A stretch of DNA of 64,000 nucleotides from a virus (IMGVR_UViG_3300049847_000321:4754-68753); one strand, 5' to 3'; positions 5,726 through 61,556 are shown, numbered from the stretch's first letter. The notes: a model not told the origin generated them from the sequence alone. Numbers and translations are program-made.

Positions 5726-6376
5726 ATGAAACTAATACCACTAGCCCTTCTACGAAAGAAAGGTGCCTGCCAAAAGCAACTATCTCTGATAGAAAACGAA
5801 TGGCCTAGCGGCATACCGCTTACGCAAGAGACTGCCGAAAGGTTCCTAGAACTGGAACTTGATATTGACTGGGTAGTAGAGAACCTGCTGACTGAGCAAG
5901 AGCAGACAGAATGCGAAAGGATTCAACAACCTGCAAAAGCAGAATACGAAAGGATCGAACAACCTGCATTAGCAGAATACGAAAGGATCACACAACCTGC
6001 ATTAGCAGAATACGAAAGGATCACACAACCTGCAAAAGCAGAATACTTAAGGATCGAACAACCTGCATATGCAGAATACTTAAGGATCGAACAACTTGCA
6101 TTAGTAGAATACTTAAGGATTCAACAACCTGCAAAAGCAGAATACAATAGGATTCAACAACTTGCATCAGCAGAATACAAAAGGATCGAACAACCTGCAT
6201 GGGCAGAATACTTAAGGATTCAACAACCTGCATTAGCAGAATACAAAAGGATTCAACAACCTGCATTAGCAGAATACTTCAGGATTAAACAACCTGCATT
6301 AGCAGAATACAAAAGGAAGAAAGTCATGGCTATTCTGGAACTACTTCTCAAACGAAAGGAAGAAAACGGACAATGA
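5726..6376 (+). CDS. 11-aa repeat cassette protein, copy 1 (12 repeats)
   Basis: 60-aa head + 12 x (AEYxRIxQPAx) + AEYKRKKVMAILELLLKRKEENGQ. Left flank TAAGGAGACCAAGTAATG. Confidence 0.85.
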   Translation: MKLIPLALLRKKGACQKQLSLIENEWPSGIPLTQETAERFLELELDIDWVVENLLTEQEQTECERIQQPAKAEYERIEQPALAEYERITQPALAEYERITQPAKAEYLRIEQPAYAEYLRIEQLALVEYLRIQQPAKAEYNRIQQLASAEYKRIEQPAWAEYLRIQQPALAEYKRIQQPALAEYFRIKQPALAEYKRKKVMAILELLLKRKEENGQ

Positions 6377-6939
6377 ATACAATTAAGGAATTACGAACGT
6401 TCTTATCTAAATACGGTCGCAAAGATCACTTGGTGTATGTCGGCATTGATCCTGGCGTGAGCGGGGCAATCGGAATCATCATGGGCAAACGAGTGTTCTC
6501 TATGAACATTCCGGTCAAGAAGATAAAGGTGAATAAAAAGAACAGAAAGATTTTTGACCATGATTTGATTATCAAGATTTTCGACTTATTGGAAGAGTAT
6601 GAAGAAACCATGACGGTGATGCTTGAGACTGGTCAGTTACTATGGAACACAGCGTTTGCTTCTTTCTCAATTGGTGTAAGCTACGGCATGTGGCCTTTGT
6701 TTCTGAAATCAAAAGGTTTCAATTTCAAAGAAGTTGTGCCACAAGTCTGGAAGAAGCAGATGGGTTTAATTTCAAAGAAGAAAGGTGCCGTCGCCAAGAA
6801 AGAGCAGTCTCGAACCAAAGCCTTGAAGCTGTTCCCAGAATTAGATTTGAAGTTCAAAAAGGATCACGATAGGGCGGAAGCAATTCTACTGGCCGTCTAC
6901 GCGCGACACTTAGATAAAGGAGCATGGAATGCCGACTGA
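6373..6939 (+). CDS. ruvC: RuvC-like Holliday junction resolvase
   Basis: VGIDPGVSGAIG, VMLE, VPQVWKK, DHDRAEAILLA. Confidence 0.85.
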   Translation: MNTIKELRTFLSKYGRKDHLVYVGIDPGVSGAIGIIMGKRVFSMNIPVKKIKVNKKNRKIFDHDLIIKIFDLLEEYEETMTVMLETGQLLWNTAFASFSIGVSYGMWPLFLKSKGFNFKEVVPQVWKKQMGLISKKKGAVAKKEQSRTKALKLFPELDLKFKKDHDRAEAILLAVYARHLDKGAWNAD

Positions 6940-7105
6940 AAACAAAGCCAATGAAGGTGAGGTTTATGTTGACAACATCAAACCAAAAAAAGTAAGTATT
7001 CCGAACATAATCAAATGCCCAAATTGTGACCAAGAATCTCTCAAGCAAGTCGAACATACGAACACTTGGAAGTGTTCTGAATGTTCGTATAAGGAGGTGC
7101 GATGA
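6929..7105 (+). CDS. Small Zn-ribbon protein (58 aa, not in ORF track)
   Basis: AAGGAG upstream; CPNC...WKCSEC; stop overlaps the csrA start. Confidence 0.6.
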   Translation: MPTENKANEGEVYVDNIKPKKVSIPNIIKCPNCDQESLKQVEHTNTWKCSECSYKEVR

Positions 7106-7308
7106 TGTTGGTAACTGGCATGGCCCGAGGTGAGTCTGTAAAGATTGGTGACGATATTTACATAACCGTACTACCCAAAAATAGCAGGAGCTCAAAAATA
7201 CGATTAGGAATTCAAGCACCGAAAGCAATTCCAATCATACGATTGAAAAACAAAAGGCATTTTGTCAAGGAGGATGATCGTGGGGAAAATGAAATGCCTT
7301 CATTGTGA
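7105..7308 (+). CDS. csrA: CsrA/RsmA-like translational regulator (divergent)
   Basis: MLV...GESVKIGDDIYITVL...IRLGIQAPKAIPIIR; SD AAGGAGG 7 nt upstream. Confidence 0.85.
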   Translation: MLVTGMARGESVKIGDDIYITVLPKNSRSSKIRLGIQAPKAIPIIRLKNKRHFVKEDDRGENEMPSL

Positions 7309-7669
7309 AGAGGTTAAATTCATTCGATGCAGAGGGCTATGTAGTTCATGCCACTCGAACCCATATGTGTTGAAGAAATTCCCTTCTAAAAACAATAAAG
7401 ACACCTTACCTAATAACAAACAACTCAAAATACCCAAATATCCGACACTTGCCCCTGCGGGCTCCTTAGATAAAATTCAAGTGCTGATTCAACGGCGTGA
7501 TAATGGAGAAGATTTATGGCACCCATTAGATAATCCGAGAATGACAAATGAAATTCGAGTTTCTGGTTATCGTTCTAACAAAATTGAACGAATAGGGCAA
7601 CTACCAATTAGAGAAAGAAACAGAACCAATGCTAAAAAGTCTCGAACTAAAAAACTTCCAAAGACATAA
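7262..7669 (+). CDS. Hypothetical Zn-finger protein (true start probably 7280-7289)
   Basis: CLHC...RCRGLCSSCH motif. Confidence 0.65.
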   Translation: MSRRMIVGKMKCLHCEEVKFIRCRGLCSSCHSNPYVLKKFPSKNNKDTLPNNKQLKIPKYPTLAPAGSLDKIQVLIQRRDNGEDLWHPLDNPRMTNEIRVSGYRSNKIERIGQLPIRERNRTNAKKSRTKKLPKT

Positions 7670-8735
7670 GTATTATAAATTGGAGTTTGATCGTGTCACA
7701 ACAATCATCGGACCTAGTGATTCGGGTAAGTCGGCCATCATTAGGGCTTTGCGATTTGTCGCATTCAACAGACCTAACAATAAACGCATTATTAAACATG
7801 GGGCTTCCTGCGCATCTGTTAGATTGCACGTTGCCGGAAAAAGTATTTTACGCAAGCGTGGGAACAGACGAACAAACCTTTATCGAATTGATTCAAAAAC
7901 GTTTCGGGCGATCGGAAGTAAAGTTCCGGACGCCATAGCCAGTATTCTGAACCTTTCAGAAGTCAACTTTCAAAAACAACTTGATCTGCACTTTTGGTTT
8001 GCTGATACGCCAGGTCAAGTATCGAAGGCATTGAATCAGATTGTCAATCTAGGTAAGATTGACACCTCATTGGCTTACGTCGCCAATCTGCAACGAAAAA
8101 CCAAAGCCAAGATTGAAGTGCTGCAAGATTCGATTGCCGACCTGAAATCTGAGAAAAGTCAGTTAGATTGGGTTCCACGGTTTCTATCTGATTTGTCGGC
8201 ATTGTCGGCCATATTTGCCGATATGGCCAGTAATGGCCCTAGAATCGCTTTATTGGCATCGTGCGCCGAAAGTATGGCCAATAGCCTATCGGCCCGTGCG
8301 CGTGCGGCTAATGCGATTATAGGGGCTTCAAATGCCGTTCAAATTGGCAGTCGAGCCATTGACATACAGAACCGACGAATGAAGTTGAAACGACTTGTTT
8401 CTGACCTGAGTCATGCCATCAAACTGACGAACTTACCTATTCCTGATTTGAATGATTTGAACAAGCAACGAATTAAAGCGGATGCCATTGCCGATAAAAA
8501 TTTAGGTTTGTTTAATCTGATCCAAGAAATAAGAGAGGCTAATAAGAACCTATGCGAAGCAAAAGCGAGTCTGGAAGTAGAAGCAAGACAGTTAGAAAAG
8601 GTAACAAAGGGGAAATGTCCGACGTGCGGAAAAGAGTCATCGCAATTTCTTGCGGTGACTTACACTTCTCAGAAAAGGCACCTGTCGCCCGTGCAGAGAA
8701 GGAAGATTGGCTTGAAGTGCAAGCACGATACCTAA
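7629..8735 (+). CDS. Rad50/SbcC/gp46-like ATPase, N-terminal half (Walker A, coiled coil, Zn hook)
   Basis: LKSLELKNFQRH, GPSDSGKSAIIRAL, Q-loop NFQKQ, coiled coil, KCPTCG. No signature motif or Walker B. Confidence 0.88.
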   Translation: MLKSLELKNFQRHKYYKLEFDRVTTIIGPSDSGKSAIIRALRFVAFNRPNNKRIIKHGASCASVRLHVAGKSILRKRGNRRTNLYRIDSKTFRAIGSKVPDAIASILNLSEVNFQKQLDLHFWFADTPGQVSKALNQIVNLGKIDTSLAYVANLQRKTKAKIEVLQDSIADLKSEKSQLDWVPRFLSDLSALSAIFADMASNGPRIALLASCAESMANSLSARARAANAIIGASNAVQIGSRAIDIQNRRMKLKRLVSDLSHAIKLTNLPIPDLNDLNKQRIKADAIADKNLGLFNLIQEIREANKNLCEAKASLEVEARQLEKVTKGKCPTCGKESSQFLAVTYTSQKRHLSPVQRRKIGLKCKHDT

Positions 8736-9568
8736 AGCAATTGAATGAGTTGTCAAGTCAACATGACAACGTTCCGATACTTTGCAGCGGCGATATATTC
8801 AATCAATGGAACAGTAGTCCTGCGCTTATCAATTTCTTGATTAAACGAATGCCACGGAATATGTACGCCATACCGGGCAATCACGATTTACCTTTGCACA
8901 ATTATGACGATATTAAAAAGTCAGCATATTGGACACTTGTTGAAGCGGAGGCAATCACTGATCTACAACCAATGCCTGAATGCAGTAGTCATATGTTCGA
9001 GGATATGATTGTGTGCCCGTATCCGTACAGTTATCCGTGCCCATATAATCCAGCAAAAGAAAAAGGGAATAAAATTTGTGTGGCGTTGATTCACGACTAC
9101 ATTTGGATCGACAAGTGCGGTTTCCCAAATGCAAACCCTTCTCGACGGATTTCTGAAAACAGCGAATGGGCAAAAAATCTTAAAGGTTTTGATGTTGCCA
9201 TATTTGGTGATAATCATATCGGATTCAAAACAACGTGTAACAAAGGTAAGACAATAATCTTGAATGGCGGTGCATTCATGCGCCGCAACATCGACCAGAT
9301 CAAATACAAACCTTTTGTTGGCTTGATCTACAGTGACGGTTCTGTTGAACAGCATTACCTTGACGTGTTTGAGGATAAGTTCATTGAAACAAAACTTGAA
9401 TGGAACGGCAATGAAATTGACATGAGTGATTTCTTGGAAACGCTTAAGAACGGAAGTAAAGCTGTCATTGATTTCACAGAAGCGGTTGAAAACTATCTGT
9501 CAAATCCGAAGTCACCGCTTTCAAAACAAGTGCGAAAGATTGTACGAGAGGCATTGGAGCAAACATGA
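8615..9568 (+). CDS. Mre11/SbcD/gp47-like metallophosphoesterase nuclease
   Basis: CGDLHF, CSGDIFN, IPGNHD, LIH, FGDNHIG. Start ATG 8615 chosen for its AAAGGGG SD. Confidence 0.9.
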   Translation: MSDVRKRVIAISCGDLHFSEKAPVARAEKEDWLEVQARYLKQLNELSSQHDNVPILCSGDIFNQWNSSPALINFLIKRMPRNMYAIPGNHDLPLHNYDDIKKSAYWTLVEAEAITDLQPMPECSSHMFEDMIVCPYPYSYPCPYNPAKEKGNKICVALIHDYIWIDKCGFPNANPSRRISENSEWAKNLKGFDVAIFGDNHIGFKTTCNKGKTIILNGGAFMRRNIDQIKYKPFVGLIYSDGSVEQHYLDVFEDKFIETKLEWNGNEIDMSDFLETLKNGSKAVIDFTEAVENYLSNPKSPLSKQVRKIVREALEQT

Positions 9569-9819
9569 TAATAATGGATGACTACGAAACAGTCAAGAGA
9601 AAGGTCGAAGAACTTCAAACCAGAATTGATAGGGCTTCCGGTGCTGTCAGTCAACTCAAATCGCAGCTCAAAAAAGAATTTGGGGTCAGCACTTTGAAGG
9701 AAGCGAAAGCACTCTACAAAAAGATGCTCGCGGAAGAACATGAAGCCTTGACCAAATGGAATAAGACTTTGGCTAAATTCAAAGAGGATTGGAAAGATGT
9801 TATCGAAGGCGATCAGTAA
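9565..9819 (+). CDS. Short coiled-coil protein (possible Rad50 arm segment)
   Basis: 84 aa with continuous heptad character, between Mre11 and the Rad50 C-half. Confidence 0.7.
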   Translation: MIIMDDYETVKRKVEELQTRIDRASGAVSQLKSQLKKEFGVSTLKEAKALYKKMLAEEHEALTKWNKTLAKFKEDWKDVIEGDQ

Positions 9820-10399
9820 AGAACTGACTGGTTATAAACGTATCGCGGAAAAAACCCGCTTAAATCGTTTGTCCCTGATTCAGAGACTAAAAGCCGATAA
9901 GTCTGCCCTAAAAGACGGGACAGCGTTTTTAGATAGGGTTATTGAGGCGCAATCTGTATTGCAGACTATCGCGCAGACTGTGCAACAGAAAGCGCATGAA
10001 CAAATAGCAACCATCGTTACGCGATGCCTGCAAGTGGTCTTTCCAGATGACCCATATGAATTCAAGATTCTGTTTGAAAAGAAAAGGTCGAAAACTGAGG
10101 CGCGGCTTGTGTTCTGCCGCAATGGTGAAGAGTTTGATCCGATTGAAGAAACGGGCGGTGGGTGTGTAGACGTGGCTTCGTTTGCTCTCCGCCTTGCCTG
10201 CATGTTGTTGCAGACACCTCAATCACGTAGATTGATGGTACTTGACGAACCGGTAAAGCACCTTGATGAAAATGCTATTGAAAGGTTCAGAGATTTGATT
10301 GAGACGCTGGCGAAAGAAATGAAGGTGCAGTTTATCATAATAACCCACTTTGAGCAACTGCAAGCCGGTAAAGTTGTTCGACTCACTAAAAGGAGTTAG
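9797..10399 (+). CDS. Rad50/SbcC-like ATPase, C-terminal half
   Basis: Coiled coil, signature-like ETGGGCVDVASFALR, Walker B/D-loop MVLDEPVKHLD, H-loop IITH. Confidence 0.88.
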   Translation: MLSKAISKELTGYKRIAEKTRLNRLSLIQRLKADKSALKDGTAFLDRVIEAQSVLQTIAQTVQQKAHEQIATIVTRCLQVVFPDDPYEFKILFEKKRSKTEARLVFCRNGEEFDPIEETGGGCVDVASFALRLACMLLQTPQSRRLMVLDEPVKHLDENAIERFRDLIETLAKEMKVQFIIITHFEQLQAGKVVRLTKRS

Positions 10400-10401
10400 A
10401 A

Positions 10402-10581
10402 ATGGAAAACGAGAATCAAAAACCTTATTGGGAATGTCCTGAGAAATGGGTTCATGCTTGTTCTGCGTCGCCGTCGATTGATGAAATCAAGGTAGAAAAA
10501 ATCGAGTTGATTTTACCGGAAGGATCTGAGATAATAGAAACTTGGATTGACAATAACGAATGTAAAACTGAGGAAAATTAA
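10402..10581 (+). CDS. Small acidic hypothetical protein (59 aa, not in ORF track)
   Basis: AAGGAG SD; stop overlaps the convergent GT2 stop (TTAA). Confidence 0.5.
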   Translation: MENENQKPYWECPEKWVHACSASPSIDEIKVEKIELILPEGSEIIETWIDNNECKTEEN

Positions 10582-15198: not shown

Positions 15199-15199
15199 G

Positions 15200-37328: not shown

Positions 37329-38867
37329 TTATTTTGCAAGACCGTTGCGAGCAGGACGTTTCGTTCCTTGCTTACTTGAAGCCGGCCCTTTCGGTTGATC
37401 TTTCTTCTTCCAGACTTTATCAGTCCGTCGTTTCGCCTGCGCATCACGCGCGGCCAAAATTGCTTCCGCTCGATCCTGTGGGATCGACAACACATCCATA
37501 AGGAACTCAAGGTTCGGAACCAATTCTTCCGAACCTGAAGTGACATATTGCAAGATCGCCTGTGCCCGTTTCATGCCCACATCCGCTTTGTCCTTATCGG
37601 CCATAGCGTTCAAATCTGACCAATTGGCGATGTATCGCTTTGCCGGTGGCAGAACACCGACTTTAATCAGTCGATCAACAAATGGATATATAATCATCGG
37701 ATTGATGTACATTTGTTGGCGACGTGATAATCGACGATTCCAAGTTGAAGAATCCTGCGTTGAAGCCAAATGACCAGCTTCTGAGCCTCGGAATATACGA
37801 AGCGGCACTCCTATAGAAGTGCAAATGGCCTCCAATTGAACATTGACATGTTTTTCTGGATTGGCGACATTCGGATTCAACGGGACGATCTTAACGCCTG
37901 TCACAGCAAGAAACCGTTTTAGATGATTTGAGTAATCATCCATTTGTTGTTTGATTGTATCTTCGTCAATGTCACCTTCACCGACAAGATCGGGGAGCGT
38001 TTCAAACCCCATTCCGGGGAAACCTCCCTTCCATAACATTTCAGCAGAACCTCCATAAGTCTTGCGCAAATCGAGACAGCGATTCAACACCGTTTGCAGC
38101 CTAGGCGTACCTAGAATTTCACTTGATTTGCGGTTATCGGCAATATGCTGAATCCGAGACCAATGCACCCGGGCAGGCATAAGAGAGGTCTGAACGTTCT
38201 GGCTGCCCATATTTCTAGGATCAACAAAATTGATATTATACCACAAGGGTTGGCCATATCTTGGATTTGTCACATCCTCAACGTATGCGCCAATTTGCAC
38301 ATTGACTTCACTGAACGTTCTCAGCCATAGCAATTTGCGCTCAGGTAATGCCCCTGTCCGTGATCTGACTTGTTCATTTCGTTCATTGATGCCCGGCACG
38401 GGCTGATCTAAAGGACGGCCATCGTCGAAGCCCATGAGAACGATACCGAATTGACCTATGCCACTCAATTCGTCGATTCGATGAAGATAATGCCATGGGT
38501 TGATCTGAAAGACCAAATCTTCCCAGGCCTGTTCAAACGGACTGGTCTTTGAATCTTCACTTTCGACTAATTCTGGATACAAAGACCAACATTCATCAGG
38601 GTAGACACTGACAACCCGAGTGGCGATACCTTCACGATCATACAATTCCTGATAAGTGCGAATATCAGGGCTATCGGGGTATTTACAATCGGCATTGAGA
38701 TTGCGACCTGTGCCGTCAAGCATTCGAGCGAATTGACCACGAAGAAGTTCCAAATTCTGAATGAATTGGTTCGCAGAAAAGATTTGTGAGACACGAGAAG
38801 GGGTAGAAAGCGGTCCCGCCGCCTTTACTACCCCATTATTGCTCACTTTACCATTTTTGCTTGACAT
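37329..38867 (-). CDS. Portal protein (DUF1073 type)
   Basis: YDREGIATRVVSVYPDECW, RVHWSRIQH, G.P.L..V.NR..DL.K..GGSAE..WK, IPLRIFRG.E.G.LAST.D. Confidence 0.88.
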   Translation of the reverse strand: MSSKNGKVSNNGVVKAAGPLSTPSRVSQIFSANQFIQNLELLRGQFARMLDGTGRNLNADCKYPDSPDIRTYQELYDREGIATRVVSVYPDECWSLYPELVESEDSKTSPFEQAWEDLVFQINPWHYLHRIDELSGIGQFGIVLMGFDDGRPLDQPVPGINERNEQVRSRTGALPERKLLWLRTFSEVNVQIGAYVEDVTNPRYGQPLWYNINFVDPRNMGSQNVQTSLMPARVHWSRIQHIADNRKSSEILGTPRLQTVLNRCLDLRKTYGGSAEMLWKGGFPGMGFETLPDLVGEGDIDEDTIKQQMDDYSNHLKRFLAVTGVKIVPLNPNVANPEKHVNVQLEAICTSIGVPLRIFRGSEAGHLASTQDSSTWNRRLSRRQQMYINPMIIYPFVDRLIKVGVLPPAKRYIANWSDLNAMADKDKADVGMKRAQAILQYVTSGSEELVPNLEFLMDVLSIPQDRAEAILAARDAQAKRRTDKVWKKKDQPKGPASSKQGTKRPARNGLAK

Positions 38868-43452: not shown

Positions 43453-43893
43453 TCAGTCCGAAGAATCAACCTGTTCAACTAGACCGCACTTAGAACATTT
43501 ATACTGGTTCCAGCAGTTACCTAATCTCGCTATGTGTTCCATCTTATGAACACAACCAACGCGATACACTTTGACTTCCTCAGAGCATGTTCCAATGTAC
43601 TCGAACAGGAACGCCTTTTCGTGGAAGATTATCAGCGTCAAGCCGCTGACGTATTTGCTACCTGGCATCTTTGCCTGGAGATACACTTCGAGTTCCGGCG
43701 AGTACATTGACCTCATGTGCCAGTATTCCTTAAGCGGAACCTCAGTGACACACGATTTGGATACACATTGATGACCTTCTTTGCTTATCAATTTGAGGTT
43801 CAGCCAAGGGAACCTTTTATTGAGATACTTCAGGTCGTCTTGAGTCTCTTTTCGGATTGCATGATCGTCGTGTGCCAGTTTGTTAATCAACAT
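43453..43893 (-). CDS. Hypothetical protein with C-terminal Zn ribbon
   Basis: ATG overlaps the cassette copy 2 stop (TGATG); C-terminal CVH...KCSKCG. Confidence 0.65.
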   Translation of the reverse strand: MLINKLAHDDHAIRKETQDDLKYLNKRFPWLNLKLISKEGHQCVSKSCVTEVPLKEYWHMRSMYSPELEVYLQAKMPGSKYVSGLTLIIFHEKAFLFEYIGTCSEEVKVYRVGCVHKMEHIARLGNCWNQYKCSKCGLVEQVDSSD

Positions 43894-44273
43894 CACTTGG
43901 TCTCCTTTCGTTTGAGAAGTAGTTCCAGAATAGCCATGACTTTCTTCCTTAAGTATTCTGCTAATGCAGGTTGTTTGATCCCTAAGTATTCTGCCCATGC
44001 AGGTTGTATGATCCTTTTGTATTCTGCTAATGCAGGTTGTATGATCCTTTCGTATTCTGCTTTTGCAAGTTGTTGAATCCTTTCGTATTCTATCTGCTCT
44101 TGCTCAGTCAGCAGGTTCTCTACTACCCAGTCAATATTAAGTTCCAATTCTAGGAACCTTTCGGCAGTCGCTTTCGTAAGCGGTATGCCGCTAGGCCATT
44201 CGCTTTCTACCAGAGACAGCTGCTTTTGGCAGGCACGTTTCTTTCGTAGAAGGTCTAGTGGTATGATCTTCAT
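43893..44273 (-). CDS. 11-aa repeat cassette protein, copy 2 (4 repeats)
   Basis: 126 aa; flanked by a 30-bp direct repeat with 2 mismatches (43891-43920 and 44271-44300). Confidence 0.85.
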   Translation of the reverse strand: MKIIPLDLLRKKRACQKQLSLVESEWPSGIPLTKATAERFLELELNIDWVVENLLTEQEQIEYERIQQLAKAEYERIIQPALAEYKRIIQPAWAEYLGIKQPALAEYLRKKVMAILELLLKRKETK

Positions 44274-44310
44274 TACTTGGTCTCCTTTCGTTTGCGAAGT
44301 TACTTGGTCT

Positions 44311-45630: not shown

Positions 45631-45939
45631 TTAGAGTTGGATGTCATCACATATGTCACGGACAAAGTTGATTTCGTCCATTGTTGTTTGTTCCGCTTCA
45701 TCTTCCGACATACTATACTCTCCGACGAGAGACGTAATCACATCCTGTAGCCCGTGCCAAGCACGAAGCCACTTCGATCCTTTATGGCGACCGGCCATCG
45801 CTTCTTGACCAAGATTCTCTAAAGCACCAATACACAATCTCTGTGCAGCTTGGTTGCCTTTCATGCACTCTCGGTAAAGATCATTCATTGAATGGAACTT
45901 GCGAAGTTTGCTTTTGGTAAGTCGTTTATATTTGGTCAT
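45631..45939 (-). CDS. Hypothetical protein
   Basis: ATG overlaps the cassette copy 3 stop (TGATG). Confidence 0.6.
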   Translation of the reverse strand: MTKYKRLTKSKLRKFHSMNDLYRECMKGNQAAQRLCIGALENLGQEAMAGRHKGSKWLRAWHGLQDVITSLVGEYSMSEDEAEQTTMDEINFVRDICDDIQL

Positions 45940-46322
45940 CACTTAGTCTCCTTTCGTTTGAGAAGTAGTTTCAAAATAGCCATGACTAACTTCCTTTTGT
46001 ATTCTGCATATGCAGGTTGTGCGATCCTTTTGTATTCTGCATATGCAGATTTTTGGCAGTCGTTTTCGTATTTTGCCCATGCAGGTTTTATGATCCTTAA
46101 GTATTCTGCTGATGCAGGCTGTGCGATCCTTTCGTATTCTACCTGCTCTTGCTCAGTTAGTAGGTTGTTCGCTACCCACTCAATATCAAGTTCCAATTTT
46201 AGGAACCTTTCGGCAGTCTCTTGCGTAAGCGGTATGCCTTGAGGCCATTCGCTTTCTACCAGAGACAGTTGCTCTTGGCAGGCACGTTTCTTTCGTAGAA
46301 GGGCTAGAGGTATGATCTTCAT
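45939..46322 (-). CDS. 11-aa repeat cassette protein, copy 3 (4 repeats, one degenerate)
   Basis: 127 aa; flanks TAAGGAGACCAAGTAATG and AAGGAGACTAAGTGATG. Confidence 0.85.
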   Translation of the reverse strand: MKIIPLALLRKKRACQEQLSLVESEWPQGIPLTQETAERFLKLELDIEWVANNLLTEQEQVEYERIAQPASAEYLRIIKPAWAKYENDCQKSAYAEYKRIAQPAYAEYKRKLVMAILKLLLKRKETK

Positions 46323-46334
46323 TACTTGGTCTCC

Positions 46335-46604
46335 TTAGTGGGGGCGATAGTTCTTCGGATCGTTGATATAAGTGTTCAGTCGGTTCCACAGTTCCGGTGT
46401 CATATTGAACTTTAAGGATCGCAGTCGCTCATTGTGAGCCGCGCATTGTTGACAAACCATTAGATGTTGATTCCTGAACTTCTCAGTCTCCTTTCTCAGT
46501 AAGTCCTTCGGCAAGTGGTCCGATACTTGTGACAAAGACTTGGCGAAGGAAATCACGTCTTTGCACTTCGGATCGAGTTTAAGTCTACCTTTTCTTTTCG
46601 CCAC
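46335..46604 (-). CDS. Hypothetical protein (C...H..VCxxC)
   Basis: GAGGAG SD with GTG start. Confidence 0.6.
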   Translation of the reverse strand: MAKRKGRLKLDPKCKDVISFAKSLSQVSDHLPKDLLRKETEKFRNQHLMVCQQCAAHNERLRSLKFNMTPELWNRLNTYINDPKNYRPH

Positions 46605-46606: not shown

Positions 46607-46840
46607 TTACTCCTCAAGTAGAATGTGTACTGTGTCTCCAACGATCTTGTGAGGAATCTTACCTGATAAGATTCTGTCCCAAAGATCATCCGACAATTCA
46701 GTCCAAGACTTCATCACTTGCCGGAGGCAAGATCGGTCCTTGGCAAAAGAGTAACCGTTCATAGCCCATGCGAAAATCGACGGAGCGTATATCATCTCGG
46801 TAGATTGCAAGATAATTTTCGTTTTAGTGGTCGTTTTCAT
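46607..46840 (-). CDS. Hypothetical protein
   Basis: Start context AAGGAGACCGAGTGATG. Confidence 0.65.
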   Translation of the reverse strand: MKTTTKTKIILQSTEMIYAPSIFAWAMNGYSFAKDRSCLRQVMKSWTELSDDLWDRILSGKIPHKIVGDTVHILLEE

Positions 46841-46879
46841 CACTCGGTCTCCTTTGTTTAAGCGATTCAGAACGGAAGA

Positions 46880-46904
46880 AGGCAGACGGAACGCCCGTCT
46901 GCCT
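46880..46904 (-). terminator. Intra-operon hairpin (terminator or processing site)
   Basis: AGGCAGACGG-gcgtt-CCGTCTGCCT followed by TCTTCC. Confidence 0.5.
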
Positions 46905-46937
46905 GGCGTACACGTATACTGTGGGCGAACCTTTATA

Positions 46938-48145: not shown

Positions 48146-49621
48146 TCAAGTCGTGACCTGCAGGGCATCCAATTGTGCCCTTGACCTCATGCCGCCAATG
48201 TGACGCTTCATCTTCCATAAATTGTTGAACGCACCTGAAGATGCGTCAACCTGATCTTTATAACGTGAGTGAGGAAAATGTTTCATTTCTTCCACGTATT
48301 CTTTATTCCAAGGCTTTTTAACAATGTAGACTGATCCTGCGTTAACCATAGAACTCAATGAGTCGGCTCGATCCAATTTGCTGCCATCACTTGCGCCAAC
48401 TTTGTGAATCCTTGTTTTGAAACCTGGCAGACTTCTAGCGGAATTATATGCAGATTCTTTTCCACCACTTCCAGGTTCTTGTTCAAAAACTACTATAACA
48501 TTCTTACCGTCTTTTGCAGCAGTTTCTCGGATAATTACTTCACGTTCCCACGAATCAACTTGGACACGAACAACATCAAGAACCCAAAAGAACCCATAAA
48601 TGTCGTGAGCCATGAGGACACCTACTGTCCATGCTCCGCCTAAATGCGTTCCGGCTTTATCCCAATATCGGACAATTTTTCTGAACGACTTCCAAGGAAT
48701 TTGCTTTATTGCAGGATCCCATTCCTTAAGCAATTTCGTCTTGAACTTACCGCCGCCCTTAGGAACAGGATTCTGAAGGACTTGACCTGCGTAACCGTAT
48801 TCGCCCAGGTTCTGAGCCATCTCTTCCAATACTTCTTGCGGCAATCGAATAGGATCAAACAGTTTGTCCTCTGAGTAGTATTTGATAAGATGTGCAGGTT
48901 TGATATCCTCAGTGACTTCTCCAGGGAGACAGATATGTTTAACGTTCTTTCTTTCAAGGAACAAATTTGTAGGATCGTCTTGATGCAACCTTTGCATAAT
49001 AAGAATTGTAGGTGTGACTCGCTTATCAACTTTTCGAGTCGGTAGAGTTTCTTGGAGCCAATGATTTGCAGCCTCCAGCTCTAATGTCGAAACAGCTTGG
49101 TTCGGATCTAATGGATCGTCGATAATCAGAAAGTGACCGTGCATACCAGTAACTGAGCCATTGACACCTACAGCATAACGATAGCCACCTTTTGTATTAG
49201 CATAGTAGCCCTTGGTGTTCTGATCGACACGAAGTAAAACTTCTGGATAGCACTTCCCGTATAAATCACTAATAACCACATCGCGTGACTTGCGTGACAA
49301 GTCCATAGCAAGCGGATAAGAATATGATCCGCAGATGCACCTGGCAGACAGCATTCTTGTCCAGACCCAAGCTGGAAACATAATACTACAGATGGTGCTC
49401 TTACTTGTTCCTGGCGAAATGTTTATGACAAGATCATATTCTTTGTGCAAACCTAAGAACACACGTTCTGCCAACCTTTGCATCTCATCACAAAGGTATT
49501 CAATATGCCAATTCCAGACTGGCTTCTCTGGGATCAACACATGCCAAAATTGCTGAACAAAATCAAAGAAGGATTCCCGACCTAATGCAGCAATCAATTC
49601 TATTTTACTCACCGCTGGCAT
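48146..49621 (-). CDS. terL: Terminase large subunit
   Basis: WNWHIEYLC, INISPGTSKS, LIIDDP, ILIMQRLHQDD, YAGQVLQNP, YWDKAG, EQEPGSGGK, KDQVDASSGAF. Confidence 0.95.
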   Translation of the reverse strand: MPAVSKIELIAALGRESFFDFVQQFWHVLIPEKPVWNWHIEYLCDEMQRLAERVFLGLHKEYDLVINISPGTSKSTICSIMFPAWVWTRMLSARCICGSYSYPLAMDLSRKSRDVVISDLYGKCYPEVLLRVDQNTKGYYANTKGGYRYAVGVNGSVTGMHGHFLIIDDPLDPNQAVSTLELEAANHWLQETLPTRKVDKRVTPTILIMQRLHQDDPTNLFLERKNVKHICLPGEVTEDIKPAHLIKYYSEDKLFDPIRLPQEVLEEMAQNLGEYGYAGQVLQNPVPKGGGKFKTKLLKEWDPAIKQIPWKSFRKIVRYWDKAGTHLGGAWTVGVLMAHDIYGFFWVLDVVRVQVDSWEREVIIRETAAKDGKNVIVVFEQEPGSGGKESAYNSARSLPGFKTRIHKVGASDGSKLDRADSLSSMVNAGSVYIVKKPWNKEYVEEMKHFPHSRYKDQVDASSGAFNNLWKMKRHIGGMRSRAQLDALQVTT

Positions 49622-53043: not shown

Positions 53044-53059
53044 GAAAGGAAACCAAGCA

Positions 53060-53770
53060 ATGAAGATCATACCACTAGACCTTCTACGAAAGAAAGGTGC
53101 CTGCCAAAAGCAGCTGTCTCTGGTAGAAAGCGAATGGCCTCAAGGCATACCGCTTACAAAAGCAACTGCCGAAAGGTTCCTAAAATTGGAACTTGATATT
53201 GACTGGGTAGCAGAGAATCTGCTGACTGAGCAAGAGCAGATAGAATACTTAAGGATCATACAACCTGCATGGGCAGAATACTTAAGGATCAAACAACCTG
53301 CATTAGCAGAATACGAAAGGATCGAACAACCTGCAAGGGCAGAATACAAAAGGATCGAACAACTTGCAAAAGCAGAATACGAAAGGATCATACAACCTGC
53401 ACTAGCAGAATACGAAAGGATCGAACAACCTGCATGGGCAGAATACAAAAGGATTCAACAACCTGCATATGCAGAATACAAAAGGATTCAACAACCTGCA
53501 TTAGCAGAATACAAAAGGATCATACAACCTGCATGGGCAGAATACGAAAGGATCGAACAACCTGCATATGCAGAATACAAAAGGATCCAACAACCTGCAT
53601 ATGCAGAATACAAAAGGATCGAACAACCTGCATATGCAGAATACAAAAGGAGCATAGCACCTGCATCAGCAGAATACAATAGGATCAAACAACTTGCAAG
53701 GGCAGAATACGAAAGGAAGAAAGTCATGGCTATTCTGGAACTACTCCTTAAGCGAAAGGAGACCAAGTGA
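53060..53770 (+). CDS. 11-aa repeat cassette protein, copy 4 (14 repeats)
   Basis: 236 aa; flanks AAGGAAACCAAGCAATG and AAGGAGACCAAGTGATG. Confidence 0.85.
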   Translation: MKIIPLDLLRKKGACQKQLSLVESEWPQGIPLTKATAERFLKLELDIDWVAENLLTEQEQIEYLRIIQPAWAEYLRIKQPALAEYERIEQPARAEYKRIEQLAKAEYERIIQPALAEYERIEQPAWAEYKRIQQPAYAEYKRIQQPALAEYKRIIQPAWAEYERIEQPAYAEYKRIQQPAYAEYKRIEQPAYAEYKRSIAPASAEYNRIKQLARAEYERKKVMAILELLLKRKETK

Positions 53771-54183
53771 TGAAAAAGAATCCAATTACTATTGCAGACC
53801 TTGAAGCGAGAGTCGCCAAAGGGGTTGAATATCTCAACCTCAACTATCCACAATGGCAGACTAAGATCGACCTAAGTGCATTCAACATCAATAATTGCAG
53901 ACAATGTATTTTCGGACAATTGTTAGAGAATTACTGGAAACTTGAAATGGAAGATCCTGAAGTTTACCATAAAGCATATTTATACGGATTTGATCTAATA
54001 CCTAGTCATTTAGACGAAGTTCTAGTAGAGACAACTGCATTCAATCAATACGGCGACCCTATCAATCCGAATGACAACATCGGTATTGATTCTTACACCT
54101 TAGAATTACAACGAATTTGGGTACGAACAATCAATAACCTTCAAACACAAGAACAAGGAGAATCCAATGTTGAGCGTCAGTAA
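53770..54183 (+). CDS. Conserved phage hypothetical protein
   Basis: RVAKGVEYL...WQTKIDL..FNI...CIFGQL pattern; TGATG coupling. Confidence 0.7.
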   Translation: MKKNPITIADLEARVAKGVEYLNLNYPQWQTKIDLSAFNINNCRQCIFGQLLENYWKLEMEDPEVYHKAYLYGFDLIPSHLDEVLVETTAFNQYGDPINPNDNIGIDSYTLELQRIWVRTINNLQTQEQGESNVERQ

Positions 54184-55852: not shown

Positions 55853-55853
55853 A

Positions 55854-55952
55854 ATGAATTCGGAAACCAAAATTGCCTTGTGCGTAGTACCTGTTATTGT
55901 GCTTGCAATTTGGCGGTTCATTGTGTACGAAGATAAAAAGGACATCGACTAA
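55854..55952 (+). CDS. Very small single-TM protein (32 aa, not in ORF track)
   Basis: GGAGG upstream; IALCVVPVIVLAIW; TAATG coupling to the helicase. Confidence 0.45.
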   Translation: MNSETKIALCVVPVIVLAIWRFIVYEDKKDID

Positions 55953-57337: not shown

Positions 57338-57510
57338 GTACCAAACACTATCTCATAAACACAACTCCTGTGCGAAGAAAAGTATTGTATATTCGCGGTC
57401 TTGACGCCGACGTATTAACCAAATTCAAAGCCAAGTGCGCAACTCATGGTGTCACAATGAAAGACGCCGTTGAGGTTCTGATTAGAAAATACATCGCGGG
57501 GCAAATCTAA
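57334..57510 (+). CDS. Ribbon-helix-helix-like protein (58 aa, not in ORF track)
   Basis: LYIRGLDADVLTKFKAKC..HGVTMKDAVEVLIRKY. Confidence 0.6.
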   Translation: MSTKHYLINTTPVRRKVLYIRGLDADVLTKFKAKCATHGVTMKDAVEVLIRKYIAGQI

Positions 57511-57752
57511 TGGAATACAAAAACGAGCTTCAACAAGACCCATTCAGAGCTACTCCTGATTATTTAACACCTGTGAAAAAACTAGCCATGAAAGATGTTA
57601 TAATCAGACACGGTTTTGAATTGGAAAAAATGGGATTAAACCGAACAGATGCTTTATGCTGGATTATAATGACACAATGGCGAGAATTGGACTCATGGAG
57701 GACAAAACATGAGATGGAATTACTCTACTCTATAGAAAAGCCTATAAACTAG
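57510..57752 (+). CDS. Hypothetical protein
   Basis: TAATG coupling. Confidence 0.55.
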   Translation: MEYKNELQQDPFRATPDYLTPVKKLAMKDVIIRHGFELEKMGLNRTDALCWIIMTQWRELDSWRTKHEMELLYSIEKPIN

Positions 57753-57765
57753 GTAGGAGTGTGGC

Positions 57766-57999
57766 ATGGCAGGTAAAATACTAGAACCGGTTTATCGTCA
57801 ATTAGGAGCTAAAATTCAATCTATCCGAGAATGTTTAGGCTGGACTCAAGATGAATTAGCAAAAAAAGTAGGTCTCACTCGGACTTCAATAACTAATTTT
57901 GAAGCTGGTAGACAACGAATACTTCTCCATGACTTAGACAAATTTGCGAAAGCCTTCAATATGGATCATCGCACCATAATGAAAGGAATTTGGTGGTGA
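57766..57999 (+). CDS. XRE-family HTH regulator
   Basis: WTQDELAKKVGLTRTSITNFEAGRQ. Confidence 0.9.
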   Translation: MAGKILEPVYRQLGAKIQSIRECLGWTQDELAKKVGLTRTSITNFEAGRQRILLHDLDKFAKAFNMDHRTIMKGIWW

Positions 58000-58000
58000 C

Positions 58001-58888
58001 ATGGCCTTCCTCGACATCATCAATGACCTGGGATTACCTATTGCCCCTGAGGGTCATCGTCATGCCAGACCTGGCTGGCTACAGATCGACTGCCCTTGGT
58101 GCGGTAAGAACTCTCAGGTGTTTCACCTAGGCTACTCTTTAACCGGCAATTATGCCAATTGCTGGAAATGCGGGCCAAAGCGGGTTGTCGATATTGTCAT
58201 GGAATTGTCTGGCTTGCGTTATCCCGAAGCCAGAAAGCTGCTAGGCGACTTTACGCCAGAATTGCAACAGATCAAAAGGACGGGGCATCTCCAGCTGCCT
58301 AAAGGCATACGCAAGATGGCAGGACCCCATCGACACTACTTGAAGTACAAACGCGGCTTGAATCCTGAAAGAATGGAGCGAATATGGGGGTTAAGGGGCA
58401 TTTGCTTCGATATCCGACTACCTTGGCGAATCTTCATCCCGATTCATCTAGGAGGTAATGTAGTTTCGTGGACAACACGAGCGGCATCGGATTACACAAT
58501 GCGGCGATACATTTCAGCCGACTTGGAAGAAGAAGATGTTCACCACAAAGATTTGCTGTATGGTGAAGATTACGCCCGGCACGCAATCATCATTTGTGAA
58601 GGTCCTGGCGATGTATGGAATATAGGGCCAGGTGCTGTTGCCACGTTCGGAACCAGCTACACTCGATCCCAGATTGATCGAATGAGTAGGTATCCGACAA
58701 GAGTGGTTTGCTTCGATTCTGACAAAGCTGGTCAAAAGCGTGCCAAAGAACTGGTGAGCATTTTATCAGTTTTTGATGGTGATACTTACAACGCAGTCTT
58801 AGACGCAAAGGATCCTGGTTCGGCTTCAAAAGCTGAAATTGCGGAATTGAGAAGTCGTTTCTTAGAAAGGAACTGCGATGATGAATAG
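58001..58888 (+). CDS. DNA primase (Zn-binding domain + TOPRIM)
   Basis: CPWC...NCWKC; IICEGPGD; VCFDSDKAG; KDP. Confidence 0.88.
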   Translation: MAFLDIINDLGLPIAPEGHRHARPGWLQIDCPWCGKNSQVFHLGYSLTGNYANCWKCGPKRVVDIVMELSGLRYPEARKLLGDFTPELQQIKRTGHLQLPKGIRKMAGPHRHYLKYKRGLNPERMERIWGLRGICFDIRLPWRIFIPIHLGGNVVSWTTRAASDYTMRRYISADLEEEDVHHKDLLYGEDYARHAIIICEGPGDVWNIGPGAVATFGTSYTRSQIDRMSRYPTRVVCFDSDKAGQKRAKELVSILSVFDGDTYNAVLDAKDPGSASKAEIAELRSRFLERNCDDE

Positions 58889-58905
58889 AATCAAAAGGAA
58901 CAGTA

Positions 58906-58935
58906 TTGACATATAGTATATCACTATGATATACT
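58906..58935 (+). promoter_or_regulatory. Sigma70-like promoter with overlapping 9-bp inverted repeat
   Basis: TTGACA-18 bp-TATACT; AGTATATCA-cta-TGATATACT. Confidence 0.7.
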
Positions 58936-58959
58936 TACTTCTAATGAAAGGATCTTACA

Positions 58960-59283
58960 ATGACTGTGCATGAATATGTTGATTCGTTGAAAGAAGAAGA
59001 AACAATGTGGATAAACACTGATTGGTTCTTTATTATCAAAGGAGCAAGCAAAGTGCTGGCATTTGCCTTAATGCATAATTTAGGTTCTAATGGCAAATGG
59101 TTCAAATTGTCTATGGAGTACCAAACTCAACTGAGAATAATAAACTATCTGATTAGAAAAGGTCTAATCAAGAGAAAGATACAAGGGTTCCCTAGAGAAA
59201 GATTCTTTCAAATTGACCTGAAGAAATTGAAGCAGCTAGAAAAAGGAATAAAACATGGCAAGAGTAAAAGGAATCGCACTTGA
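58960..59283 (+). CDS. Hypothetical winged-helix-like protein
   Basis: ...RIINYLIRKGLIKRKIQGFPRERFFQID. Confidence 0.6.
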   Translation: MTVHEYVDSLKEEETMWINTDWFFIIKGASKVLAFALMHNLGSNGKWFKLSMEYQTQLRIINYLIRKGLIKRKIQGFPRERFFQIDLKKLKQLEKGIKHGKSKRNRT

Positions 59284-60466
59284 TATCCAAGACTTGTTTA
59301 CAGAAAACAAAATAACCACTACTGAAGCATTGCTTCTTTGGACAATCGACAATATGGTTAGAAGCAACTTTACTGGTTGTTGGGCATCAAACAAATTTCT
59401 TGGTAAGAGTGTTAAGGTTAAACAAAAACGACACGTTCAGAAAATGCTTAGACACCTTCAAGATTTAGGACTCATCCGTGTTGTTTCAAGGACATCAAAT
59501 TCAAGAGTCTTTGCAACCAAATGGAATGACATTGAAGATGATGACTTGGTGACGAAAACATCAAGTAGTGAACAATTGTACAGAGGGGATGTCTTTAACC
59601 ACACGGGGGGGATGCTTTATAAGACATCCCCCTCTTTATTACTACGTAATAAAGATATAAAGAGTAATACTGTCGGCTCTACCGAGCCGACGAAAAGAAA
59701 GAAGAAAAATGGAGAAAAGCCTATGCCAGAATGGAGCAACTTTAACAGCGTCTCCAGTCAAATGAAAGAGTCACCATCAACCTTCGACTTAGAATGCGCC
59801 AAACGACTGGCACATGTAGTTCAAGCCTCCAGAAAGGTTATGCGCAAATTTCAAACCTCTAAGTGGGCTACCAGCTTTCGAGACTTGCGACTGATCGACA
59901 AGGTAGAAGAAAAGCGAATCACCAAGGTTCTCGACTGGTACTGCGAGCATATGGGTGAAGACTACGTACCTCAAGCCTTCTCAGGCGAAGGTTTCAGAAG
60001 TAAGTGGCTCCAACTAGAAGCCGGGATGTTGCGCGATTTGGGACCAGAAGTTGAGGTGAGTCTTTCGGCTTTGGAGATCGTCAAGAAACTGAACCTGTAT
60101 AAGTGGCCAAAAGGTTCCGAAAAGCAGTTACCGCAGTTTGTTCAAATCAGCATGGATAATTACAACGATTTCGGTTTTGCAGTTGATGACTACAAAGGTA
60201 GATTGATTGTGACTAGATCAGAAATGAAAATGGATGAATTGCTTCACTTCCTATTGAAGCGAGAAGGCTTGCTGCCAACTAAATGGTTTATTGAGCATTG
60301 GTGGAAGCAAGTTCGTGAGCAAGTTTTCAATTGGGAAGAGTTTTCAGGTGATTTGAAATCGTACATTTTCAAACCAACACACAAGATGTTTCAAAGGTAT
60401 ATGCGGGGCAAAATTCAACCGAATCTGTATTCACAATGGGACCGCCTAATGAAGGAAACCAAGTAA
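59255..60466 (+). CDS. Replication initiator (N-terminal wHTH, lambda O-like central domain)
   Basis: WASNKFLG...VQKMLRHLQDLGLI; KWATSFRDLRLID...VLDWYC...FRSKWLQLE resembles the lambda O C-terminal domain. Confidence 0.7.
   Translation: MARVKGIALDIQDLFTENKITTTEALLLWTIDNMVRSNFTGCWASNKFLGKSVKVKQKRHVQKMLRHLQDLGLIRVVSRTSNSRVFATKWNDIEDDDLVTKTSSSEQLYRGDVFNHTGGMLYKTSPSLLLRNKDIKSNTVGSTEPTKRKKKNGEKPMPEWSNFNSVSSQMKESPSTFDLECAKRLAHVVQASRKVMRKFQTSKWATSFRDLRLIDKVEEKRITKVLDWYCEHMGEDYVPQAFSGEGFRSKWLQLEAGMLRDLGPEVEVSLSALEIVKKLNLYKWPKGSEKQLPQFVQISMDNYNDFGFAVDDYKGRLIVTRSEMKMDELLHFLLKREGLLPTKWFIEHWWKQVREQVFNWEEFSGDLKSYIFKPTHKMFQRYMRGKIQPNLYSQWDRLMKETK
59583..59670. promoter_or_regulatory. Candidate replication origin inside the initiator gene
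   Basis: GGGGATG(T)CTT twice direct and once inverted, followed by an AT-rich TTTATTAC-tac-GTAATAAA palindrome. Confidence 0.45.
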
Positions 60467-61044
60467 TGAAACTAATACCACTAGACCTTCTACGAAAGAA
60501 AGGTGCCTGCCAAAAGCAACTTTCTTTGGTAGAAAGCGAATGGCCTAGCGGCATACCGCTTACGAAAGCGACTGCCGAAAGGTTCCTAGAACTGGAACTT
60601 GATATTGACTGGGTAGTAGAGAACCTGCTAACTCAGCAAGAGCAGGTAGAATACAAAAGGATCGAACAACCTGCATATGCAGAATACAAAAGGATCGAAC
60701 AACCTGCATATGCAGAATACAAAAGGATCAAACAACCTGCATATGCAGAATACAAAAGGATCGAACAACCTGCATATGCAGAATACGAAAGGATCAAACA
60801 ACCTGCATTAGCAGAATACTTAAGGATCGAACAACCTGCATGGGCAGAATACGAAAGGATCGAACAACTTGCATATGCAGAATACGAAAGGATCGAACAA
60901 CCTGCATTAGCAGAATACAAAAGGATCAAACAACCTGCATATGCAGAATACGAAAGGATCGAACAACCTGCATTAGCAGAATACAAAAGGAAGAAAGTCA
61001 TGGCTATTCTGGAACTACTTCTCAAACGAAAGGAGACCGAGTAA
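60466..61044 (+). CDS. 11-aa repeat cassette protein, copy 5 (10 repeats)
   Basis: 192 aa; flanks AAGGAAACCAAGTAATG and AAGGAGACCGAGTAATG. Confidence 0.85.
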   Translation: MKLIPLDLLRKKGACQKQLSLVESEWPSGIPLTKATAERFLELELDIDWVVENLLTQQEQVEYKRIEQPAYAEYKRIEQPAYAEYKRIKQPAYAEYKRIEQPAYAEYERIKQPALAEYLRIEQPAWAEYERIEQLAYAEYERIEQPALAEYKRIKQPAYAEYERIEQPALAEYKRKKVMAILELLLKRKETE

Positions 61045-61556
61045 TGAAGATCATACCTCTAGCCCTTCTACGAAAGAAAGGTGCCTGCCAAAAGCAACTT
61101 TCTTTGGTAGAAAGCGAATGGCCTAGCGGCATACCGCTTACGAAAGCGACTGCCGAAAGGTTCCTAAAATTGGAACTTGATATTGAGTGGGTAGCGAACA
61201 ACCTACTAACTGAGCAAGAGCAGGTAGAATACGAAAGGATCGCACAGCCTGCATCAGCAGAATACTTAAGGATCGAACAACCTGCATATGCAGAATACGA
61301 AAGGATCGAACAACTTGCGAGGGCAGAATACGAAAGGATCAAACAACCTGCATATGCAGAATACTTAAGGATTCAACAACCTGCATTAGCAGAATACGAA
61401 AGGATCAAACAACTTGCATTAGCAGAATACTTAAGGATCGAACAACTTGCATATGCAGAATACGAAAGGATCAAACAACCTGCATCAGCAGAATACAAAA
61501 GGAAGAAAGTCATGGCTATTCTGGAACTACTTCTCAAACAAAAGGAAACCAAGTGA
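61044..61556 (+). CDS. 11-aa repeat cassette protein, copy 6 (8 repeats), tandem with copy 5
   Basis: 170 aa; shares its left junction with copy 5; right flank AAGGAAACCAAGTGATG. Confidence 0.85.
   Translation: MKIIPLALLRKKGACQKQLSLVESEWPSGIPLTKATAERFLKLELDIEWVANNLLTEQEQVEYERIAQPASAEYLRIEQPAYAEYERIEQLARAEYERIKQPAYAEYLRIQQPALAEYERIKQLALAEYLRIEQLAYAEYERIKQPASAEYKRKKVMAILELLLKQKETK

Follow-up and report, generated by a model that had tools for sequence, protein, structure and literature searches.

How does a compact phage genome come to hold eight closely similar copies of one repeat-protein gene, set into unrelated operons on both strands? The stretch analysed here (the window) comprises 64,000 nucleotides (nt), bases 4754-68753 of the 77,099-nt IMG/VR virus record IMGVR_UViG_3300049847_000321. 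An earlier note on this DNA had described in it six dispersed cassettes encoding a protein of variable length built from 11-residue repeats, and had offered two explanations, a diversifying family of binding proteins engaged in anti-defence or host takeover, and a self-propagating mini element with no transposase of its own. We find that the cassettes probably represent a lineage-specific, recombination-driven expansion of a fast-evolving accessory coiled-coil family to eight copies, and not an autonomous mobile element, a reading that we prefer while leaving it considerable room for doubt.

Eight copies of one cassette

Alignment of the window copies reveals a single anatomy, a 56-residue head followed by 4 to 14 units of the form AEYxRIxQPAx and a short hydrophobic cap ending in KETK and a stop codon (tail consensus AEYxRKKVMAILELLLKRKETK). 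In the unit counts given here the AEYxRK unit that opens the tail is left out. Inspection of the open reading frames (ORFs), together with the alignment, bears out all six ORFs as first described, with their positions, strands, head, repeat block and tail. In window coordinates they are:

5726..6376, plus strand: copy c1, 216 residues, 12 repeat units; diverged tail KRKEENGQ before the stop; ATGA overlap with the start of the RuvC-like gene
43893..44273, minus strand: copy c2, 126 residues, 4 repeat units; TGATG overlap of its stop with the start of the following gene
45939..46322, minus strand: copy c3, 127 residues, 4-5 units; the most diverged copy, with one irregular 12-residue unit (AKYENDCQKSAY)
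53060..53770, plus strand: copy c4, 236 residues, 14 repeat units; downstream of a NusG-like gene
60466..61044, plus strand: copy c5, 192 residues, 10 repeat units; starts at a TAATG overlap with the replication-initiator gene
61044..61556, plus strand: copy c6, 170 residues, 8 units; tandem partner of c5; stop overlapping with the start of a helix-turn-helix (HTH) regulator gene

The repeat numbers first reported (12, 4, 4, 14, 10 and 8) agree with ours in five copies, c3 holding 4-5 units if its irregular unit is considered. Together the six copies sum to 3,219 nt, or 5.0% of the window, as had been estimated (about 3.2 kb, 5%). The count of six is right for the window but not for the complete genome, in which two further copies lie outside the window at genome positions 406-918 and 74736-75446, bringing the total to eight copies and 4,443 nt, 5.8% of the DNA. 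A stretch of 142 nt stands at both ends of the record, the two versions differing by a single T indel; given this overlap, the record, though labelled 'linear', is a complete circular map or a terminally redundant genome of about 76,957 bp. The repeat number is even in all seven regular copies of this genome; parity as a rule was dropped, as homologues proved inconsistent by a crude count.

The positions of the copies were checked against an independent assembly, the Logan contigs of one public freshwater sediment metagenome run, which may be the source sample and which holds 91% of the sampled words from a 3.2-kb test stretch (window 58900-62100). Contigs of unique sequence enter the cassette ends by 28-50 nt with 0-1 differences, and they do so at every junction of copies 2-6. 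Because these contigs bridge into the cassette ends, the positions of the copies are real; the comparison bears on cassette positions and not on repeat numbers or their heterogeneity inside the arrays. A few 'other letters' and a back-joint within c4 are as expected from cross-mapping between copies.

A translational junction repeat borders the cassettes

With up to 3 mismatches allowed, the window contains the 17-mer AAGGAGACCAAGTRATG 12 times, where 0.29 occurrences would be expected. DNA similarity among the copies opens 14-17 nt before the ATG at AAGGAGACCAAGTAATG, which comprises a Shine-Dalgarno (SD) sequence, a spacer and the start codon, and it closes with AAGGAGACCAAGTGATG, the codons for KETK and stop together with the ATG of the next gene; the flanks beyond are unrelated. 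The final cap codons encode the SD, the spacer and the overlapping stop and start for the gene that follows, and genes upstream of the cassettes stop right at the SD (TAAGGAG, TGAAAGGAG) or within the junction repeat. Given that the same 14-17 nt stand ahead of most cassettes and that the tail ends in the same junction, the duplication unit extends from one start codon to the next. Therefore a copy can be gained or lost between a stop and the next start with translational coupling unbroken. The overlaps of start and stop codons with neighbouring genes (TGATG, TAATG and ATGA), noticed earlier as translational linkage to unrelated operons, are real. SDs of the AGGAGAC type are present at other genes too, whereas the CAAGTRATG spacer is found only at cassettes. 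The junctions and junction-like sites of the window are:

5712..5728, plus strand: 5' junction repeat of c1, AAGGAGACCAAGTAATG
44271..44287, minus strand: 5' junction repeat of c2
43891..43907, minus strand: 3' junction repeat of c2, with the tail KETK and stop, the SD and the start of the next gene
46320..46336, minus strand: 5' junction repeat of c3
45937..45953, minus strand: 3' junction repeat of c3
53046..53062, plus strand: 5' junction repeat of c4, 2 mismatches
53756..53772, plus strand: 3' junction repeat of c4
60452..60468, plus strand: 5' junction repeat of c5, which also codes for the last residues, KETK, of the initiator protein
61030..61046, plus strand: junction repeat between c5 and c6 in tandem
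61542..61558, plus strand: 3' junction repeat of c6
44275..44300, minus strand: 26-nt cassette-tail remnant immediately ahead of c2, followed a little farther out by another AGACCAAGTAA
46838..46855, minus strand: solo junction without a cassette, reading CTTAAACAAAGGAGACCGAGTGATG, ahead of the gene at 46607-46840

Two junctions are non-canonical. The 3' end of c1 matches the repeat up to AAAGGA and then continues with a different spacer, and the copy c0, which is not among c1-c6, has a different 5' ribosome-binding site (RBS) and an ATGA overlap; both are expected from crossovers at different points of the repeat. The tail remnant upstream of c2 looks like the scar of a lost upstream tandem copy, and the solo junction may be either the footprint of a lost cassette or an unoccupied look-alike site. 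Together, the non-canonical ends, the tail scar and the solo junction indicate gain, loss and crossovers at varied points of the repeat.

Neither a promoter nor a hairpin is found within the cassette junction repeat, and the solo site alone is preceded by a terminator-like hairpin. Just upstream of it, at window 46868-46905 on the minus strand, a GC-rich hairpin is followed by a T-rich run (GGCAGACGG-GCGTT-CCGTCTGCC TTCTTCC), a probable terminator inside the leftward operon.

Mosaic heads and reshuffled repeat codons

The eight heads share 86-97% DNA identity and are strongly mosaic, 156 of the 276 informative site pairs failing the four-gamete test, which indicates gene conversion. That c2 and c5 differ at 4 of 60 head residues, as noted before, is correct (I3L, R13G, N46D and E57Q). 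The ratio of nonsynonymous to synonymous polymorphism (pN/pS) among the paralogous heads is 0.38, a value that denotes purifying selection, whereas in the repeats the unit-wise pN/pS is 1.85.

Over 63 regular repeat units the backbone codons are fixed even at silent sites (GCA 62/63, GAA 63/63, TAC 63/63, AGG 61/63, CAA 61/63 and the second GCA 61/63), and the word GCAGAATAC appears 72 times inside the eight ORFs and nowhere else in the genome. Variation falls on codon 4 (K, E, L, N or F), codon 7 (E, K, Q, I or T), codon 9 (P or L) and codon 11 (Y, L, W, R, K or S). Codons 4, 7 and 11 have 5-7 alleles each and are statistically unlinked within units, that is, they assort independently, and 46 distinct units are found among the 63. 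Blocks of units are shared as well; the two-unit block AEYKRSIAPAS-AEYNRIKQLAR is common to c0 and c4. This pattern fits concerted evolution of the framework, with diversity apparently kept and reshuffled at three positions. The earlier proposal of a diversifying binder is upheld to this extent, that variation is confined to codons 4, 7 and 11 and to the P/L choice at codon 9, with the contrasting pN/pS of repeats and heads; nothing links the family to anti-defence.

Several features of the array DNA were noticed along the way. Tyrosine (TAT) at repeat position 11, present in 17 of the 63 units, turns the unit boundary into CTGCATATGCAG, a perfect 12-nt palindrome (for example at window 60671-60682), which may be relevant to recombination or restriction or may simply follow from the Ala-x-Ala codons. 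Across the arrays none of the six frames is interrupted, giving rise to spurious ORFs of 40-137 residues (MGRILKDQTTC..., MQVVRSF...) at window 53140-53853, 60633-61025 and in other arrays, which gene callers may annotate. Avoidance of BamHI sites was considered as the cause of the linked ATT-CAA codons and is unsupported, GGATCC occurring 8 times in the genome. That the proteins act as DNA mimics was ruled against, given that they are near neutral (net charge -4 to +4).

A large protein family with a multi-copy habit

The cassette proteins belong to a large, widespread and uncharacterised family with the head consensus MKxITxxxLxxxGACxxQxxLFxxxFGxxxxVTxxxxxxxxxxFDxxWAAxNLL. In head alignments L9, C15 and T33 are invariant and A14 and W49 nearly so. 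At E<=1e-3 a head-only profile retrieved 3,871 cluster representatives from 1.84 billion proteins, of which 1,140 also satisfy E<=1e-10, the clusters being defined at 50% identity and consisting of metagenomic and IMG/VR hypothetical proteins, almost all unannotated. Among the best 150 representatives nearly all are 60-200 residues long and consist of a head at the N terminus, then hendecad repeats and lastly an aromatic cap. Several family members are fused tandem duplicates with 2-4 heads, and a hidden Markov model of the head finds heads in independent IMG/VR loci with E values of 1e-10 to 1e-27.

The repeat pattern is also that of the family. When 430 units were compared across 81 proteins of the family, variation was highest at positions 4, 7 and 11, and A1, E2, Y3 and A10 were conserved, the conservation of positions 1 and 3 being partly built in, as these served as anchors in the comparison. 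The 76 units of this genome are conserved and variable at the same positions.

Many paralogs in one phage genome had seemed unusual. For this family they are not, other phage contigs carrying 8-11 copies, mostly in tandem. We count 11 copies on L044, 10 on L026, 8 on L029, 9 on L045 and L046 together, 3 on L020 and 2-3 on others. These correspond to IMGVR_UViG_3300037174_000181 (L044), 3300042991_000497 (L026), 3300033990_000214 (L029) and 3300047172_000041 (L045/L046). The repeat dialects of L044, L026, L029 and L045/L046 differ (APAWKAYDEAT, AEYERV.., AYDAAxA..), and some of the ORFs are fused or degraded. Tails in L020, L021, L029 and L026, which end in NGGE, QED, GDTP and ENQS before the stop, likewise carry GGAGG or GGAGA with ATGA or TGATG. 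What sets this genome apart from family members elsewhere is that its copies are scattered through several operons and both strands, and that its repeat DNA is extremely uniform.

A word-indexed protein search yielded 40 relatives, some with the same head and others with AEY repeats attached to two different N-terminal domains. The latter (IMG/VR contigs L012-L018; proteins P0003-P0005, P0008, P0012 and P0022) carry AEY stalk and cap under heads that begin with Met-Cys, of the MCEFVSW...GHGAI...ECTDFSxPxNFP and MCQFFSAI...SHS types. Thus the stalk is a module shared beneath different heads. One Met-Cys-headed protein is labelled 'antirestriction protein' by the Joint Genome Institute (JGI), a label with no visible basis. 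Bacterial genomes carry the family sporadically, and there on phage-like contigs, where its members sit in early regions beside RecT/YqaJ or PrimPol; within one order 1 of 23 genomes has it. Its Atlas neighbours are hypothetical proteins of viruses.

Scans of the six proteins and their homologues against Pfam, PHROGs, NCBIfam and PADLOC gave only sub-threshold coiled-coil noise (FtsL, FliH, flotillin). The sub-threshold match phrog_8974 is of unknown function, and there is no enzyme match in Pfam, NCBIfam or PHROG. Imm5_like (PF21805) was considered and set aside, the whole genome showing no match at E<=1 and the resemblance being a weak one of shape, with a template modelling (TM) score of 0.51 to an Atlas cluster. 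For YdhT_N (PF27195) the Atlas feature scores 0.89 and TM scores are 0.42-0.45 to viral clusters with some YdhT_N members, a lead that is unconfirmed. The literature library searched, which is incomplete, yielded nothing relevant on hendecad repeats in phages, on YdhT or on the protein family.

Predicted structure of head and stalk

The AlphaFold2 model of the short copy c2 (predicted local distance difference test, pLDDT, 92; predicted TM score 0.81) shows a head of four short helices and a beta bridge, after which two long helices fold back on each other as an intramolecular hairpin. In the model of c5, which has 10 repeats (pLDDT 87), the same head is followed by one continuous helix over residues 57-191. 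A two-copy model of c5 built with ESMFold2 scored 0.50, against 0.01 for the best of three controls; the 0.50 mark is attained by 21 of the 30 proteins whose solved structure pairs two copies of one chain, and by none of the 23 with a solved single-chain structure. Its contacts involve repeat positions 2, 3, 6, 7, 10 and 11, a 4-4-3 spacing, together with the head and the whole cap. The stalk is most likely a two-chain hendecad coiled coil, which the model supports and does not prove, and at 0.15 nm per residue the predicted rod would measure about 10-27 nm according to repeat number. Variable positions 7 and 11 fall in the predicted dimer interface of c5 and position 4 outside it. Given this placement, variation may serve to choose the pairing partner or the register no less than to shape a surface for outside binding. 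Foldseek searches of the PDB, AFDB clusters, the Swiss-Prot AFDB set and BFVD returned nothing significant except two uncharacterised AFDB proteins.

Genomic setting and relatives of the phage

Neighbours of the cassettes encode a 5'-3' exonuclease, a RuvC-like resolvase, a NusG-like protein, the replication initiator, the HTH regulator and proteins without assigned roles. The structural module is free of cassettes, and all copies lie among early, replication or recombination genes. The recombination genes of the window are:

3264..4352, plus strand: UvsX/RecA-like recombinase
4799-5713: 5'-3' exonuclease
6373-6939: RuvC-like resolvase

By sequence these three are the phage's own recombination toolkit. 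Genes for a large terminase (48146-49621, minus strand), a portal protein (37329-38867, minus strand) and a DnaB-like helicase (62059-63459) provide further context. There are no tRNA genes in the window.

A tblastn search of GenBank phages found no close relative of the phage or the cassette. IMG/VR, searched with the RuvC-like and initiator proteins, gave one distant genome only (L019), whose RuvC-like protein is 39% identical and which has no cassette and a different synteny. Neither JGI metagenome contigs, queried with the paralog alignment and the repeat DNA word, nor IMG/VR, queried with the head DNA word, nor a set of 5.8 billion proteins yielded a close relative. Given this single distant relative genome, the phage appears to represent a poorly sampled lineage of freshwater sediment.

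Discussion

The reading that we favour can be stated as a series of steps. Copies would arise by unequal or short-homology recombination at the junction repeat, swap segments by gene conversion, and lengthen or shorten their arrays by slippage, the UvsX-like recombinase, the exonuclease and the RuvC-like resolvase probably driving the exchange. Selection would hold the repeat backbone uniform while diversifying three positions per repeat, and the outcome would be a set of rods of different lengths and different surface or interface patterns, expressed alongside early and replication genes. From the anatomy we infer that the protein may function in host interaction or as a scaffold of specific pairing, in an arms-race-like regime.

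Several observations weigh against this expansion model. No close relative of the phage was found in which a gain or loss could be seen directly or by which the insertions could be dated. A single crossover at the SD should keep the target's spacer on one side, yet most copies are canonical on both sides. Therefore one must assume either an event with two ends, pairing on the left at the SD and on the right at the start codon, or a later homogenisation of the junctions by gene conversion. The invariant silent sites could reflect a constraint on DNA or RNA. As to the protein, a proline every 11 residues is unusual for a coiled coil, the hairpin predicted for a short copy against the straight helix of a long one leaves the oligomeric state uncertain, and the dimer model cannot separate a parallel from an antiparallel arrangement. 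Searches of Pfam, NCBIfam, PADLOC, PDB, AFDB and BFVD provide no tie to any target.

A question remains, are the cassettes selfish? A non-autonomous element could exploit its two flanking RBS repeats, which mimic an uninterrupted junction, such that a double-strand break at a similar site is repaired from an occupied one and the cassette homes without a nuclease of its own, the protein being secondary. The dispersal into at least six unrelated operon junctions, always exactly from stop to start and translationally neutral, is what such an element would produce, the 14-17-nt repeat stands on both sides, the AGGAGAC-type RBSs of other genes are potential targets, a solo junction and a tail scar exist, and the phage recombination toolkit is at hand. 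Yet the head is kept as a protein over 3,871 clusters and is under constraint among the paralogs, the family elsewhere is mostly arranged in tandem arrays like ordinary gene families, and 8-17 nt of homology is short if repair is to copy from a template efficiently. No nuclease, transposase or reverse transcriptase of a mobile element was recognised in the genome; HNH_3 and GIY-YIG have no genome match, LAGLIDADG and other HNH models not having been searched. Terminal inverted repeats are absent from the tandem pair c5-c6 and its flanks, which hold internal 12-nt palindromes only, and the cassette ends are direct repeats. As the flanking repeat has the same sequence at all sites, it is not a target-site duplication. 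There is no RVT_1 match in the genome and the variable codons change at all four bases, which argues against a diversity-generating retroelement. We consider the selfish element unlikely. Of the self-propagating mini element first proposed, the autonomous form is not supported, given the missing inverted repeats, reverse transcriptase, HNH_3 and GIY-YIG domains, the identity of the repeat as an RBS and the conserved head; passive spread by recombination at the RBS repeat is supported.

A bolder form of our own model, to which we give little credence, is a combinatorial diversity system. The framework would be kept identical in order that eight expressed loci can reshuffle three specificity codons per repeat as well as repeat number, giving the population a very large repertoire of rods for binding to, or pairing with, a host or defence target that evolves fast, and the RBS junction would let cassettes home into operon junctions without polar effects. 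If true, this would add a new type of mobile gene cassette, one that is coupled by translation and needs no nuclease.

Alternatively, the functional entity might be the 33-bp repeat itself, as DNA or RNA (binding sites, iterons or a recombination hotspot), with the ORF a by-product of the 33-nt period. Silent sites of the backbone that are invariant over 63 units, open frames in all six registers, two arrays directly after the replication-initiator gene and the palindrome of the Tyr-11 units would all suit such an element. The repeat word is, however, restricted to the eight ORFs, distant homologues retain the 11-residue pattern, the head and the cap with different DNA, variation falls on whole codons with radical changes drawn from a residue set (W/Y/L/R/S/K) that is used family-wide, and the heads are under purifying selection; we regard this alternative as very improbable. 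Finally, that the copies are mis-assembled duplicates, collapsed or duplicated repeats misplaced by the assembler, is essentially excluded as regards their positions. The source is metagenome-assembled, assemblers have difficulty with repeats of 0.4-0.7 kb that are 86-97% identical, and array repeat numbers are not verifiable from contigs; yet every copy has its own substitution pattern and unique flanks, the independent contigs cross the cassette ends of copies 2-6, and the neighbouring ORFs are intact and precisely overlapped.

How does expansion by recombination at the junction repeat compare with known systems? By analogy, the closest described mechanism is the shuffling mediated by promoter-early stem-loop (PeSL) cassettes in T4-type phages. 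According to Arbiol et al. (2010, PMC2839356), PeSLs are short conserved expression signals that border small non-essential genes and serve as recombination substrates for insertion, deletion and shuffling, and exchange between nearby PeSLs is reported to yield mini-circles. Here too, short repeated expression signals border small genes. The differences lie in the repeat, which here is a 14-17-nt translational junction of SD, spacer and stop-start, partly coding, whereas a PeSL consists of a sigma-70-like early promoter and a stem-loop terminator, and in what is flanked, here one gene family and there unrelated ORFans.

With 11/3 hendecad proteins, that is, right-handed coiled coils and the 11-mers of apolipoproteins, perilipin and alpha-synuclein, the stalk has in common the period of 11, a predicted long helix and the 4-4-3 contacts. 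Proline punctuates the repeats of apolipoprotein A-I as it does this stalk. The present family has no sequence or significant fold match among those proteins, matches to apoE and perilipin being insignificant. Borrelia vls and Neisseria pilE/pilS undergo segmental gene conversion among homologous cassettes, with an invariant framework and variable parts that reassort. The heads and units described here are likewise mosaic, with a shared framework and variable codons that reassort, but all eight copies are ORFs of the expressed type, each provided with an RBS; a single expression site fed by silent donors is lacking, as is any sign of programmed switching. Mycobacteriophage mobile elements (MPMEs) are ultra-small, single-ORF, multi-copy elements with terminal inverted repeats and a fixed length. 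Our cassettes are also small (0.4-0.7 kb), single-ORF and present in several copies, but they have direct RBS repeats, a variable length and no inverted ends, and their protein is conserved as a structural family.

What does the expansion mean for the biology of these phages? At least 3,871 clusters at 50% identity constitute a family without a curated model or function that repeatedly expands to 2-11 copies per genome. Such expansion, length variation by whole hendecads and three hypervariable positions per repeat are hallmarks of host-virus conflict genes, and the family is a concrete candidate for host-takeover or counter-defence screens. A repeat of 11 residues punctuated by proline, with a fixed framework and three free positions, is a simple natural scaffold on which the pairing specificity of coiled coils can be studied. 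The genome itself would be an example of a compact phage that gains and loses genes inside operons with translational coupling undisturbed, and the idea of recombination at repeated expression signals, known from PeSLs, would thereby be extended from the transcriptional to the translational level.

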